Source of the DNA: Myxococcota bacterium
Lineage (GTDB): Bacteria > Myxococcota_A > UBA796 > CAJQPC01
Reading direction: 5' to 3'
Assembly: GCA_036012755.1 (NCBI GenBank)
Contig: DASCPX010000157.1
Coordinates: 1-64,000, forward strand
DNA: 64,000 nt
Shown: positions 34,356-40,040 of the stretch, one piece after another
Layout of the letters: each line of letters starts with the position of its first letter
Numbering within the stretch: the first letter of the stretch is position 1
Translations under genes and position numbers: made by a program
Notes under the pieces: model-generated
What the model saw: only the letters and a program-made list of their open reading frames with translations
What the model was told of the DNA's origin: nothing
Databases searched by the model: none

Positions 34356-35191
34356 CTAGGTCGCGGCAGACCCGACGACCACCCGGTCGTTGTTGGACAG
34401 GTCCTTCAGGACCGATGGCTCCAGCCCCGCCTCACGGAACAGGCCCGAGACGGCGTCGCCCTGGTCGTGTCCGATCTCTACGAGCACCGCTCGACGTGCC
34501 CGAGCGGCAGCGGCGGGGATCAACCGGCGGTACACGTCCAAGCCATCGGCTCCCCCATCGAGGGCCTCCCGCGGCTCCCACTTCGAGACCTCCAGAGAGG
34601 ACAGCTCCGCGGTGGCGATGTAGGGCGGATTCGAGACCACGACGTCGATCGGCCGCGAACGCGGGATCGGGGCCAGGAGGTCGCCGCGCAGCACCCCGAC
34701 GCGCGCCGCGAGACCATGGCCCTCGACGTTCCTCTTCAAGAAGCCAGTCGCCGCCTCGCTCCTCTCCACCGCGTAGAGCTTCACACCCGGTCTCTCCAGG
34801 GCCAGCGTCAGCCCGACGCACCCGGTGCCGGCGCCGATGTCCGCGACGAAGACCTCGTCGCCCTCGCAGTGCTCCAAGGCCGCCTCGACGAGGATCTCGG
34901 TGTCGGGTCGAGGGATGAGCACCCCAGCTCCGACGGCGAAGTCCCGCGAGTAGAACTCACGAGAGCCGACGATGTAGGCGTAGGGCTCGCCCCTGGCTCG
35001 TCGGGACAGCGGCTCGCGGATCGCAGCCAGCTCGGCCTCTGCCAGCGGGCGGTCGAACTTCATGAACAGCTGGAGCCGCTCCATCTTCAGCGCGTGGCTC
35101 ATCAGGAGCTGGGCCTCGAACTTCGGCGAGGGGATCCCGGCCTTGTCCAGGTACGCCGTGCTCCGGTTCAGGACCTCGAGCAGCGTGAGCA

Positions 35192-35192
<1 letters not shown>
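34356..35192 (-). CDS. prmC: Release factor glutamine methyltransferase
   Basis: LIPRPDTE, DIGAGTG, SNPPY, ALDGGADGL; follows prfA. Confidence 0.96.
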
Positions 35193-36280
<1,088 letters not shown>

Positions 36281-36304
36281 GTGGGTTCCAGGTAGCAGAT
36301 ACAC

Positions 36305-36340
36305 GAAACCCCCGCGGGCCGGGGGCCTCGCAGGGGTCTC
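36305..36340 (-). terminator. Stem-loop between rpmE and prfA
   Basis: GAGACCCCTGCG pairs with CGCGGGGGTTTC; short U tail. Confidence 0.55.
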
Positions 36341-36349
36341 TCGGCGGGG

Positions 36350-36610
36350 CTACGCCTCGTGCTTGAGGCCGTACTTCCGGAGGAAGCGCTCGACGCGGCC
36401 CTCCGTGTCCATGAGCTTCTGCTTGCCGGTGAAGAAGGGGTGGCTCGCGGAGGAGATGTCGATCTTGATGAGTGGGTACTCCTCTCCGTCGACTTCGATG
36501 GTGCCGTCGTACTTCTTGGGATCCATCGTCGAACCAGCGATGAACTGGTAGTCGCAGGTGATGTCCTTGAAGCAGACGAGGTTGTAGTCGGGGTGGATAC
36601 CGGCCTTCAT
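36350..36610 (-). CDS. rpmE: 50S ribosomal protein L31, type B-like (no four-Cys Zn motif)
   Basis: MKAGIHPDY, DISSASHPFFTGKQK, GRVERF. Confidence 0.95.
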   Translation of the reverse strand: MKAGIHPDYNLVCFKDITCDYQFIAGSTMDPKKYDGTIEVDGEEYPLIKIDISSASHPFFTGKQKLMDTEGRVERFLRKYGLKHEA

Positions 36611-36673: not shown

Positions 36674-37798
36674 CTAATTGCCCGCGGCGGCGCGCTTGTC
36701 AAGCGCTCCTAGGAGTGCTGCGTTGTTCCGCGTCACCCCCAGCTGGCGGCGAAGTGCGGGTGTGTCGTCGACGGCCAGGCGGAGGGCCTGTAGCCGGACA
36801 GCGTGGTCCTCGCCGACTACCTGGTCCAGGCGGTAGTTCGCGCTGCTTCCCAGGTCGATGGCCGGGTAATCACCTCGGGCGGCGAGGCCGGCGTCGAGCA
36901 GGACTTCCCAGGTGGCCGTTTCGCAGAACTCCTCCGCGACGACCTCGTCCAGGCGAGAGCCCGTTCCGACCAGCAGGCTGGCCACCACCGTCAGCGAGCC
37001 GCCCTCCTCCACGTTGCGGGCCGACGCCAGGATGCGCTTCGCGGCGCTGAGCGCCGATGGCTCCAGTCCGCCCGGGAGGGTCTTCGAGGTGCCCTGGCCC
37101 AGGTGATTCTGGGCTCGACACAGGGCGTTGAGCGAGTCGACGACCAAGACGACGTCGCGACCATGCTCGACGAGTCGCTGGACCCTCGCCAGGGCCATCT
37201 CGGCGACCGAGAGGTGACGCTGCGCGGACTCGTCGAAGGAGCTCCCGAGCACCTGCGCGCTGGCGGTCGCGAAGAGCTCTTCGAGGTCCTCCGGGCGGGC
37301 GCCGACCAGGAGCAGCACGCGCTCTGCCGCCGGGTGGTTGGCTGCGATGCCCTCCACCAGTGCGCACAGCACGCGAGTCCGTCCGCTCCGAGGCGGGGCC
37401 AACAGCAGCCCTCGCTGGCCTCGCCCGAGGGGGGCCACCAGGTCCAGGATGCGGGTCGTCGCGTCGCTCGTCTCGAGGGTGTAGGGCTCGCTCGCTTGCA
37501 GCGGTGTGAGCTCTTCGAAGGGCACCTTCTCCCGCGCCTGGTCCGCGTCGGCACCGTTGATGCTCTCGACCTTGACCAGGGCGAGGTAGCGCTCGTTGTC
37601 CTTTGGCTCGCGCACCACGCCGCGCACACAGTCGCCGTTGCGCAGGTTGAAGCGGCGGATCTGGCTCGGCGACACGTAGACGTCGTCCGGCCCTGGCAGG
37701 AAGCTGTGCTCTGGGTCTCGCAGGAACCCAAAGCCATCCGGGAGGACTTCGATGACGCCTTCGCCACGGCGGCCGCTGGGCGTTTCGGTCTGGGTCAT
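36674..37798 (-). CDS. rho: Transcription termination factor Rho homolog with degenerate ATPase motifs
   Basis: DGFGFLR, DVYVSPSQIRRFNLRNGD, GRGQRGL, ARNVEEGGSLT, YPAID; canonical synteny; catalytic motifs altered. Confidence 0.9.
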   Translation of the reverse strand: MTQTETPSGRRGEGVIEVLPDGFGFLRDPEHSFLPGPDDVYVSPSQIRRFNLRNGDCVRGVVREPKDNERYLALVKVESINGADADQAREKVPFEELTPLQASEPYTLETSDATTRILDLVAPLGRGQRGLLLAPPRSGRTRVLCALVEGIAANHPAAERVLLLVGARPEDLEELFATASAQVLGSSFDESAQRHLSVAEMALARVQRLVEHGRDVVLVVDSLNALCRAQNHLGQGTSKTLPGGLEPSALSAAKRILASARNVEEGGSLTVVASLLVGTGSRLDEVVAEEFCETATWEVLLDAGLAARGDYPAIDLGSSANYRLDQVVGEDHAVRLQALRLAVDDTPALRRQLGVTRNNAALLGALDKRAAAGN

Positions 37799-37861
37799 GT
37801 TCGTGGGCAGGGAGGAGGCCCGGTGGGTGGACCTCGATCTTGGCCTGCGGAGGACTCCCTG

Positions 37862-38476
37862 TCAAACCACCACAGCGCCGAGCCCGCGAAGCAGCTCACC
37901 GTACCAGTCTGCGGCGGCGCGCGCCCTTCCTGGCACCGCGTTGGTGCCCCAGATGACCGACAGCGTCGTCGTCGTGTCGTCGTGTGTCTTGGTGCGCTGG
38001 CTGTCCTTTACCGCGTTCCCGCAGGGACCCTCCGCGTCGTGCAGACAGAGCAGTCCGTCGAGCTTGAGCTCCTGCCCCGAGGCGTTGAACACGTAGGAGC
38101 CAGCCTCGACGATGCCAACGCGCAGCCCTCCTCGGGTGCGGTCGAGGTCCACGACGGTGATCGGGAGCCCCGAGTGGAGGCTGACCGCGTTGCAGGCGTC
38201 CACGGCGGCGTTGATGGAGCCCAGGAAGCCTGCCTCCGCGGCCTTGACGAGGTACTCGCTGGCTGGCTTGTTCCGCCCGCTCGGCTTGAACCCACCGTGG
38301 CGGAGGAGCTTGCGGACGTGGGTTCGAAGCTCCTCGTCTCGAGTGAGGGGTGCCGGCGCGTCGAGCGCGAGCAGATCGACGAGGGCCTGCGGAGAGGGCA
38401 TCGAGGACAGCGGCCGCGGCAACGTGCAGACGAGGGTCGCGGCGTCGAGGAGGGGGTGCGGGTCGAAGGCGAGCAT
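37862..38476 (-). CDS. Stand-alone B3/4 (PheRS-beta editing-like) domain protein
   Basis: GFKPSGRNKPASEYL, INAAVDACNAVS, DAEGPCGN. Confidence 0.85.
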   Translation of the reverse strand: MLAFDPHPLLDAATLVCTLPRPLSSMPSPQALVDLLALDAPAPLTRDEELRTHVRKLLRHGGFKPSGRNKPASEYLVKAAEAGFLGSINAAVDACNAVSLHSGLPITVVDLDRTRGGLRVGIVEAGSYVFNASGQELKLDGLLCLHDAEGPCGNAVKDSQRTKTHDDTTTTLSVIWGTNAVPGRARAAADWYGELLRGLGAVVV

Positions 38477-38489
38477 GCGCCGACCTAAC

Positions 38490-40040
38490 TCACCCCGACC
38501 AGCTCACGCGGTTCCGGCCTCCCTCCTTGCTCTCGTAGAGGGCGGCGTCCGCTGCGCTGAGGAGGTCGTCGCCGCTCGGCACGGTGCTCTTCGGCCCGAT
38601 GGTGACGCCTCCCACCGAGATCGTGACGCTGATGTCCACGTCGTCTCCACAGTCGACGGTCATCTGCTCGATCGTGCGGCGGATGCGCTCTCCGACGAAG
38701 CGGGCGCCCTGCTCGGGGGTGCCGGGCAGGAGCACGGAGAACTCCTCACCGCCGAGACGGCCGACGCTGTCCTCGCCGCGCACGCACTTCTCGATGAGCG
38801 CCGAGACTGCCTTGATCACGGCGTCTCCAGCGCTGTGGCCCCAGGTGTCGTTGACGCTCTTGAAGTGGTCGATGTCCAGCATCAGGACCGACAGCGGCTG
38901 TCGGTTGGCGCCGCAGCACGAGTCGATGGCGCCGCCCATGGCTTCGGTGAACGCTCGCCGGTTGAACAACCCGGTGAGGGGATCGGTGGTCGCGAGGCGA
39001 CGAAGCTCGACGTTGCTCTGACGCAGCTTTTCCGTCAGGTGCTCCTTCTCGTCGAGGAGCTCCTCGAGCTTCTTGGTGAACTCCTCGTAGGAAGCGTTCA
39101 CGCTCAGCAGCGACTGGTTCGCCTTCGACACCAGCTCCTCGAGGGTGGGCTGGCGCTTGATGTCGATTCGCATGTCCAGGGAAGCGCCGGTCATGTCGTC
39201 ACGGACCTGCTCGCAGACGGCCTCGAGGTCGAGGTGGGCGCGCGAGGGGAGGTGCTCCAGGAGCCGCCGGGCGTGGGCTACCGTGTTTCCGGCAGCCTCG
39301 GTCTGGACGATGTCCGCCACCGCGTCTGCGCAGTGTGCGACTTCAGCGAGGCGCCTCGTCTGGCGGTCGACTCCGACCGGGGCCGCGCCGTGGTGGTGGG
39401 CGATGGCAAGGGTGATGGTGTCCGGGAGGCCCCAGGTGTCGGCCTGTTCCATCACGATCTCGGGATGGGTCATTCCGCAGAGCTTGCGCTCCTCCTCGAG
39501 TCGGCGGGCTCCGGGCCAGGAGGTGGCGCGCTGCAGGGCGCCCCCGTGGTGGGGATGGGCGATGGCGAGCAGCAGCACTCCGATGTCCTGCAGCAGGCCG
39601 ACGGTCATGGCCTCGCAGGGGTCTTCGTAGCCGGCGACCGTGGCCAGGACCTGGCAGGCGATCGCGCGACGGAGCGAGTTCTCCCAGAACAGGACGCGGT
39701 CGAACTCTCCGGTGTCCACGTTGGCCGTCGTGGCGCGGACGGCGTGGGCAAGCGCTATGTTCCGGATGGTCCGCGTGCCCATGAAGAGCGTGGCCTGCTG
39801 GACCGAGTTGACCTGCCGGCCTGGGCTGTAGAAGGGGCTGTTCGCCAGCCGCAGCATCTCAGCGGTGAAGGCAGGTTCCCTGCTGATGAGGTTCGACAGC
39901 GCCCTCGAACTCACGCTCGGGTCCCCCGTCGCCTGGATGATCATCGCGAGACCAGCCGGTGGCGACGGCAGGGTGCGATGTGAGTTCTGTGCGGCCGCCG
40001 TCATCCCTTCCCGCTCCTTTGTTGGGTCCTGTCCCAACAT
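38490..40040 (-). CDS. HDOD-GGDEF diguanylate cyclase
   Basis: LRLANSPFY, GLLQDIG, IAHHH; DPLTGLFNRR, DIDHFKSVND, RGED I-site, GGEEF; start may be 40004. Confidence 0.93.
   Translation of the reverse strand: MLGQDPTKEREGMTAAAQNSHRTLPSPPAGLAMIIQATGDPSVSSRALSNLISREPAFTAEMLRLANSPFYSPGRQVNSVQQATLFMGTRTIRNIALAHAVRATTANVDTGEFDRVLFWENSLRRAIACQVLATVAGYEDPCEAMTVGLLQDIGVLLLAIAHPHHGGALQRATSWPGARRLEEERKLCGMTHPEIVMEQADTWGLPDTITLAIAHHHGAAPVGVDRQTRRLAEVAHCADAVADIVQTEAAGNTVAHARRLLEHLPSRAHLDLEAVCEQVRDDMTGASLDMRIDIKRQPTLEELVSKANQSLLSVNASYEEFTKKLEELLDEKEHLTEKLRQSNVELRRLATTDPLTGLFNRRAFTEAMGGAIDSCCGANRQPLSVLMLDIDHFKSVNDTWGHSAGDAVIKAVSALIEKCVRGEDSVGRLGGEEFSVLLPGTPEQGARFVGERIRRTIEQMTVDCGDDVDISVTISVGGVTIGPKSTVPSGDDLLSAADAALYESKEGGRNRVSWSG

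Follow-up and report, generated by a model that had tools for sequence, protein, structure and literature searches.

What remains for the transcription terminator Rho to do once the residues of its motor have been replaced and its RNA-binding domain has been kept? The question is raised by a rho gene in a 64,000-nucleotide (nt) stretch of DNA from a Myxococcota bacterium (assembly GCA_036012755.1, contig DASCPX010000157.1, positions 1 to 64,000), which we refer to as the window; its genome is G000. The gene product, P0001, is a Rho orthologue by descent, encoded in single copy at the rho-rpmE-prfA locus and native to the lineage, and the analysis supports a pseudo-enzyme kept by purifying selection that is strongest on the RNA-binding domain. 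A sequence-only reading of the window had proposed an ATPase-dead Rho in the rho-rpmE-prfA-prmC position, and the motifs, five replacements, RNA-binding domain and downstream genes that it listed were all found.

Replaced catalytic residues in P0001

Coordinates below are those of the window, and residue numbers such as K184 and E211 follow E. coli Rho.

36674..37798, minus strand: rho orthologue P0001, 374 amino acids, predicted ATPase-dead, without the N-terminal helix bundle; the genome's sole rho
37544..37762, minus strand: OB-fold primary RNA-binding domain, Pfam Rho_RNA_bind (PF07497), amino acids 13-85, E 1.4e-31
36842..37453, minus strand: RecA-like pseudo-ATPase domain, amino acids 116-319, fold kept in the Atlas model
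37379..37381, minus strand: R140, replacing Walker A Lys184 (alignment to E. coli Rho and intact relatives)
37298..37300, minus strand: A167, replacing catalytic Glu211 (same alignments)
37124..37126, minus strand: A225, replacing Arg269 (same alignments)
36923..36925, minus strand: C292, replacing Lys336 (same alignments)
36833..36835, minus strand: Y322, replacing the Arg366 finger (gapless extension from PAID; intact-relative alignments)

The frame at 37798-36674 is open over its full 374 amino acids and carries the motifs APPRSGRT, VGARPED, DSLNALCR, EEFCETATWE and SSANYR; an alignment of its product to E. coli Rho (PDB 1pv4_A) covers residues 11-341, is interrupted by a single small gap and has an E-value of 1.8e-96. 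K184, R269, K336 and R366 have functional roles in Rho, and in P0001 all four are replaced together with E211; D265, R212 and T185 are retained. For the glutamate, engineered proteins offer a guide: the passages of PMC4499133 that deal with the E211A mutant of E. coli Rho and the E386A mutant of the M. tuberculosis protein describe a loss of hydrolysis with oligomer formation, ATP binding and RNA binding kept, and state that E386A also fails in termination. Those are laboratory mutants with no known role, whereas the state in the window is natural, fixed and selected. Since P0001 carries the E211A change and four more, it is, by analogy with these mutants, very unlikely to be a functional terminator.

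The altered state is shared by three independent proteins (P0003-P0005), 71-74% identical to P0001, all of which have R184 and have lost both E211 and K336, so it is not an assembly artefact. Their identity to P0001 is 91-94% in the RNA-binding domain and 70-74% in the ATPase domain. In its RNA-binding domain P0001 retains 30 of the 34 sites that are invariant in intact Rho and, from the primary-site residues given in PMC11018607, has Y80, S82, S84, Q85, R88 and F89 in place, with L114 changed to V. At the secondary RNA site it keeps four of nine invariant sites in the Q-loop and eight of ten in the R-loop, the means in its dead relatives being 0.44 and 0.28, respectively. The stored Atlas model of P0001 (predicted template modelling score 0.90) reaches TM scores of 0.94-0.96 to canonical Rho models, with both sides of the comparison predicted, and in this model the RecA-like Rho fold is kept. 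P0001 passes the NCBIfam model NF006886 (383.5 bits, cut-off 315) and fails TIGR00767 (379 against a cut-off of 509).

The N-terminal helical subdomain is missing, as the sequence-only reading had it: a Pfam search of P0001 returned no Rho_N (PF07498), and the gap between the start of P0001 and the upstream gene is 63 bp, so the subdomain was deleted rather than frameshifted. It is also missing in five intact members of the family, yet the dead Rhos of G001 and G002, from the same genus as the window, have it; its loss is separate from the catalytic loss, and its absence is not decisive.

Spread, selection and history of the dead state

A Rho model matched in 146 of 154 genomes of the window's order, across seven families. 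We aligned 135 of these 146 proteins (of the remaining 11, six were split, three truncated and two not fetched) and, leaving aside four more that were cut by contig ends, scored 131 full-length proteins, calling a protein intact if all eight of K184, T185, E211, R212, D265, R269, K336 and R366 were kept. Only eight of the 131 are intact, all of them in the window's family, and 123 are altered. K184 or K336 is lost in 122 of the altered proteins and both are lost in 112, while E211 is lost in 35 and R366 in 79; position 184 is Arg in 76, and E211 is kept in 88, R212 in 114, D265 in 112 and R269 in 100. Substitutions vary by lineage and at position 184 include Val, Pro and Ala. The decay is graded, its far end being proteins of family f6 with shortened C termini. 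In sister orders all 17 Rhos scored are intact (18 of 26 genomes fetched, one protein cut). The eight order genomes without a match comprise one with a contig-edge fragment (G012), six that are 70-83% complete, and G072, to which we return below.

The locus is stable around these changes. Either rpmE or prfA follows rho at 125 of 135 order loci, dead or intact, and in the window's family intact and dead copies have the same upstream neighbours. The NF006886 cut-off is passed by 113 of the 154 order genomes, though just eight of the 131 aligned proteins are intact, and public records name the dead-type homologs P0131 and P0133 plainly as Rho; calls of "has rho" from hidden Markov model (HMM) scores thus overcount functional Rho. 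Among the 15 records listed from a phage collection, all below 60% identity, none is of the dead-Rho type.

Selection on the two domains was compared using ratios of nonsynonymous to synonymous substitution rates (dN/dS; Nei-Gojobori, pooled dS, with three Rho and three prfA rows dropped for failed codon mapping). Over the closest pair in each of 16 altered-Rho genera, the median dN/dS of the RNA-binding domain is 0.054, compared with 0.176 in the ATPase domain and 0.14 in prfA, all ratios being inflated by the high guanine-cytosine (GC) content at third codon positions; the ATPase domain gives 0.02 and 0.14 in two intact pairs. Measured against an intact reference, dead and intact order members have RNA-binding-domain identities of 0.72 and 0.73, respectively, and ATPase-domain identities of 0.42 and 0.78. 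Site by site, the 120 dead Rhos retain 88% of invariant sites in the RNA-binding domain, 28% in the R-loop and 31% around K336, with K184 itself kept in 5% and K336 in 2% (invariance was defined on 25 intact Rhos, and dead averages are genus-weighted). In-frame indels fall in the ATPase core of 108 of the 123 altered Rhos and within the RNA-binding domain in four, many of them common by descent, and altered frames stay open for 284-388 amino acids past position 51. The idea of a pseudo-enzyme, first drawn from the selective loss of catalytic residues, thereby gains domain-wise selection and site retention in its favour. Neutral decay with stops and frameshifts, named beforehand as the finding that would speak against it, was looked for in the relatives and not seen; the only clear frameshift among the 123 is a late one in G004, in an otherwise intact protein.

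A prfA tree built from 59 rows nests the intact genera within the order and requires at least four changes of state. A single origin of the dead state was rejected on this tree (approximately unbiased test, p = 0.0013; 38 versus 21 rows; one gene, quick tree), and regain by transfer into the window's family (f1) is disfavoured, no foreign donor appearing among 63 rows. At 29 sites the residue of intact f1 proteins differs from that in sister orders; the dead families side with f1 at 23 of these and with the outgroup at five, and GC drift may account for some of this. The intact Rhos of the family thus look native rather than imported, which makes several independent losses more likely than one loss followed by regain, as judged from one marker gene. 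Trees of the ATPase domain were not trusted; in them, dead lineages are joined via long branches.

The same spectrum recurs in a second order of the phylum (that of G373; loci L236-L268 and L275-L280), where intact, decayed and deleted rho occur at one locus. Of 31 aligned Rhos there, 24 are altered and seven intact, and the usual losses are E211 and K336, with the Walker A Lys retained, which is opposite to the pattern in the window's order. In G467, of its genus g157, rho is cleanly missing from its locus. As a separate observation from the phylum sample, a rho match was seen in 0 of 33 genomes of family f23, 5 of 46 of f13 and 6 of 14 of f30. In addition, rho lies in pieces in G283 (L240, G283:C9) and as two overlapping matches in G561:C22, which may be pseudogenes or assembly errors.

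The C-rich leader before rho

The RNA just upstream of the start codon has a composition of its own:

37799..37833, minus strand: C-rich, G-poor, rut-like tract abutting the rho start, without a Shine-Dalgarno (SD) motif; C-G skew 0.46

Rut sites are characterised in PMC12360218, where that source treats them, as weakly structured RNA biased for C over G. We took the leader as positions -35 to -1 before the start and counted a C-G skew above 0.3 as a pass. The skew of the window's tract is at the 98th percentile among SD-less genes of G000, and 101 of 113 leaders of altered rho genes pass (47 of 55 genera). The same C-rich, G-poor composition marks these 35 nt in all eight intact rho genes of the order too, and an SD-like word is absent from 107 of 111 leaders. 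Among controls, 6.8% of 993 SD-less genes and 3.7% of 675 SD genes of G000 pass; over a 60-nt span, 5-6% of rpmE and prfA leaders do so, as do two of seven sister-order rho leaders. Further decay of the ATPase is not accompanied by a weaker skew. Among second-order rho genes with a callable start, 6 of 11 altered and two of six intact ones reach a skew of at least 0.35.

The fold of the rho leader is no better than that of shuffled sequences (z -0.28), and no Rfam match, sigma-70 promoter or coding-strand terminator was found near the gene. In B. subtilis rho is negatively autoregulated, according to the relevant part of PMC9931155, and a tract kept after the loss of the motor would fit autoregulation by binding only. 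A separate observation concerns other genes of G000: among its 12 most C-rich 35-nt leaders, six belong to minC, ftsZ, mreB, two Mur ligases and gyrA/parC, located as follows (contig and coordinates).

C91 26657-27478 (L372)
C211 20400-21518 (L321)
C174 35208-36257 (L374)
C211 10138-11553 (L375)
C183 55368-56804 (L380)
C9 64059-66386 (L376)

Candidate roles and how they compare

Our best reading, to which we assign a probability of about 0.55, is an ATP-independent, probably open-ring oligomer that binds C-rich RNA; its oligomeric state, RNA targets and autoregulation are deduced from the patterns described above. A native rho gene would have been turned into a pseudo-ATPase in place, and its protein would no longer thread RNA, hydrolyse ATP or terminate transcription. 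The putative open ring would expose the OB-fold primary sites and bind C-rich single-stranded RNA, acting by occupancy, so that untranslated C-rich RNA could be covered or handed off. One likely target would be its own leader, where the tract abuts the start codon, so that binding alone could limit its own translation. A wider proposal, which we offer as tentative, is that this is a second, ATP-independent role of Rho, seen whenever termination is lost and reached convergently several times in the order and again in another: a multivalent binder of C-rich RNA that would serve as a post-transcriptional regulator, repressing its own mRNA over the ribosome-binding site and perhaps a few division and wall genes whose leaders are of the same kind, in bacteria where no Hfq was found.

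Several observations weigh against the occupancy model. The gene is dispensable in some descendants: rho has truly been deleted from its locus in G072 (97% complete), where a gene that we take from its sequence to be DNA-ligase-like runs directly into rpmE-prfA-prmC (L274, G072:C1:31000-39500), and genus g157 of the second order has no rho match in any of the 73 genomes searched. Constraint is also uneven, with dN/dS in the window's own genus relaxed to 0.41-0.55 in the ATPase domain and at 0.28 in the RNA-binding domain, close to 0.30 for prfA, and with values of 0.15-0.89 over six pairs for the ATPase domain of g177 in the second order, which speaks against a fully stable role. As for the leader, the tract in the window itself is a modest one, some of it being paired in the fold, and the genome-wide control comes from G000 only, with crude start calls. 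A lean towards C in leaders is also more widespread in this order: those of ftsZ exceed 0.3 in 9 of 24 rows from dead-Rho genomes and in 0 of 13 from sister orders, so part of the rho leader signal may reflect tolerance or relaxed avoidance of C-rich RNA, or a feature of initiation. As an order-wide target ftsZ itself was not supported, given those 9 of 24 rows and the SD-like motifs that are visible.

Some of these points would be equally expected of a vestige, in which termination has become dispensable and the gene is decaying slowly to loss under a weak constraint such as folding or operon context. The graded series down to the shortened f6 forms, the clean deletions in G072 and g157, and the higher ATPase dN/dS of the window's genus and g177 all fit such a course. 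However, a vestige does not readily explain an RNA-binding domain held more tightly than prfA, nor one whose identity to intact Rho is equal in dead and intact proteins as that of the ATPase domain falls from 0.78 to 0.42, nor a gene kept in 146 of 154 genomes over seven families with one clear frameshift, and we consider this account rather improbable. An unlikely alternative places the dead ring on RNA polymerase, binding the elongation complex or NusA via its N-terminal face, with RNA binding secondary; like the open stand-by complex, it would tune pausing or keep nascent RNA off the DNA without translocation. The stand-by complex is portrayed in the pertinent sections of PMC12360218 and PMC9908020 as an open, catalytically inactive ring bound through its N-terminal face, which is the conserved part of the dead Rhos, and NusA, NusG and Mfd are present. 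Nevertheless, the conserved residues are also the RNA-contact residues, and the C-terminal loop of NusG looks unchanged across the seven family genomes compared (four intact, three dead), out of 18 loci. Moreover, the sections on RNA release in PMC9908020 (T. thermophilus) and PMC4499133 (M. tuberculosis) hold that release needs ATP hydrolysis, and the former describes the inverted complex as dispensable for release.

The active site might instead be rewired or slow, with an Arg for the P-loop Lys supporting nucleotide binding or slow hydrolysis, possibly as a nucleotide sensor. The prevalence of Arg184 and the frequent retention of E211, R212, D265 and R269 across the order are in keeping with this, but P0001 is without E211, R269, K336 and R366 together, substitutions at 184 differ by lineage, and the secondary RNA-site loops have decayed. 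Lys-to-Arg replacement is, furthermore, the usual drift in GC-rich genomes, and we regard a rewired site as highly improbable. Least probable of all, and largely refuted, is an inactive subunit or inhibitor in a hetero-hexamer with an active Rho paralog, which the sequence-only reading had suggested in the form of a regulatory subunit. Group B second copies elsewhere are proposed to form hetero-hexamers in the portion of PMC11347177 that covers them, and G000, at 95.95% completeness, could by itself hide a missed gene. Yet a tblastn search of its 6.7-Mb assembly returned only the P0001 gene and a 26%-identity ATPase, the RNA-binding-domain model matches once in G000, and no second copy turned up in any of the 146 order genomes in which rho was matched, G063 (one contig) and G047 (two contigs) among them; seven double matches in the order are one gene split into complementary pieces at contig ends. 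With no second rho, there is no support for a hetero-hexamer formed with an active paralog, and the gene lies at the same locus as the family's intact orthologue. An anti-terminator acting against Rho, raised by the same reading, would have no other Rho to oppose. Of the functions it had listed, RNA binding or an RNA chaperone is the only one to survive, and it is the putative function that we retain.

P0001 is Rho by descent and, by the sequence features tested, not a functional terminator, and it can be set beside several known systems. With canonical Rho (NF006886, TIGR00767; PDB 1pv4, 3ice) it shares the OB-fold site, RecA-like fold and genomic position, and it differs in the replaced catalytic Lys, Glu and Arg and in having no helix bundle. 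Type 4 or Group B short Rho (NF041509, paralog_Rho2) likewise lacks the bundle and is of similar length; as outlined in PMC11347177, however, Type 4 Rho has its essential ATPase residues in place and the Group B form occurs as a second copy, and P0001 is neither, scoring 294 bits against the NF041509 cut-off of 628 and being single-copy and not beside a full Rho. The closest parallels, which temper the earlier claim of an undescribed system, are Rho-like proteins of Thermoleophilia and Rubrobacteria (Conexibacter woesei, Baekduia soli) in the supplement of PMC11347177. There, as here, the RNA-binding domain is kept and the catalytic Glu replaced; the Q and R loops are lost, and the hosts are classed as without functional Rho. 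Compared by description only, those proteins are from another phylum and, unlike P0001, keep the N-terminal domain, with an insertion. The intact Rho of sister orders implies that the dead state here arose separately.

That account is one paragraph in which the proteins are treated as non-functional, with no selection test, intermediates or leader signal in the text concerned; in the same source, the latest survey, Moreira et al. (2024) describe the Rho ATPase domain as highly conserved and proteins lacking it as non-functional. Beyond the Moreira supplement, our literature search turned up neither a study of what a naturally ATPase-dead Rho does nor any paper on this lineage, though mentions in supplements are possible. 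New here are the finding that this state is order-wide and concerns a sole copy, the repeated, graded losses alongside orthologues that are intact, the comparison of selection between domains and the C-rich leader. Almost an entire order of bacteria with large genomes seems to do without Rho-dependent termination, keeping the RNA-binding half of Rho under tighter constraint than release factor 1, which suggests that Rho has a second, ATP-free RNA-binding job, so far uncharacterised. Within one family the same locus holds orthologues that are intact, half-decayed or dead, a natural series that makes testable both the role of Rho beyond translocation and how genomes of 4-12 Mb cope without it.

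Other factors and genomic neighbours

Across five genomes, intact or dead, Hfq exceeded its cut-off in none, RNase J matched in one (below cut-off), RNase E/G was found in four and Mfd in five, and none of these factors tracks the state of Rho. The C-G skew at four-fold sites of prfA is likewise the same by Rho state in f1 (0.26 intact, 0.23 dead). In G000 the trigger factor has an acidic linker followed, at its C terminus, by a helical domain resembling Rho_N (L233:1486-3030, minus strand, G000:C189; Pfam), with a look-alike in G002 (L382:649-2292, minus strand, G002:C248); it was not found in G018, G006, G063 or G155, and its presence does not follow the absence of the helix bundle from Rho itself, the Rho of G002 having retained one.

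The genes around rho in the window are these:

36350..36610, minus strand: rpmE, type B L31, directly downstream; synteny marker
35192..36304, minus strand: prfA (release factor 1); synteny marker and control for the species tree and dN/dS
34356..35192, minus strand: prmC; synteny marker
37862..38476, minus strand: B3/4-domain gene upstream of rho, likewise upstream in G001 and G002 (dead) and G003 (intact)

In most family members, with intact and dead rho alike, an HDOD-GGDEF gene (38490-40040, minus strand, in the window) is found upstream of rho. Between rpmE and prfA lies a GC-rich inverted repeat (36305-36349) that the terminator scan did not list. The rpmE of the window is of the zinc-free type B, and several relatives have an L31 at the same locus that matches it at just 40-46%, which suggests in-place swaps or remodelling of L31 at the rho locus.
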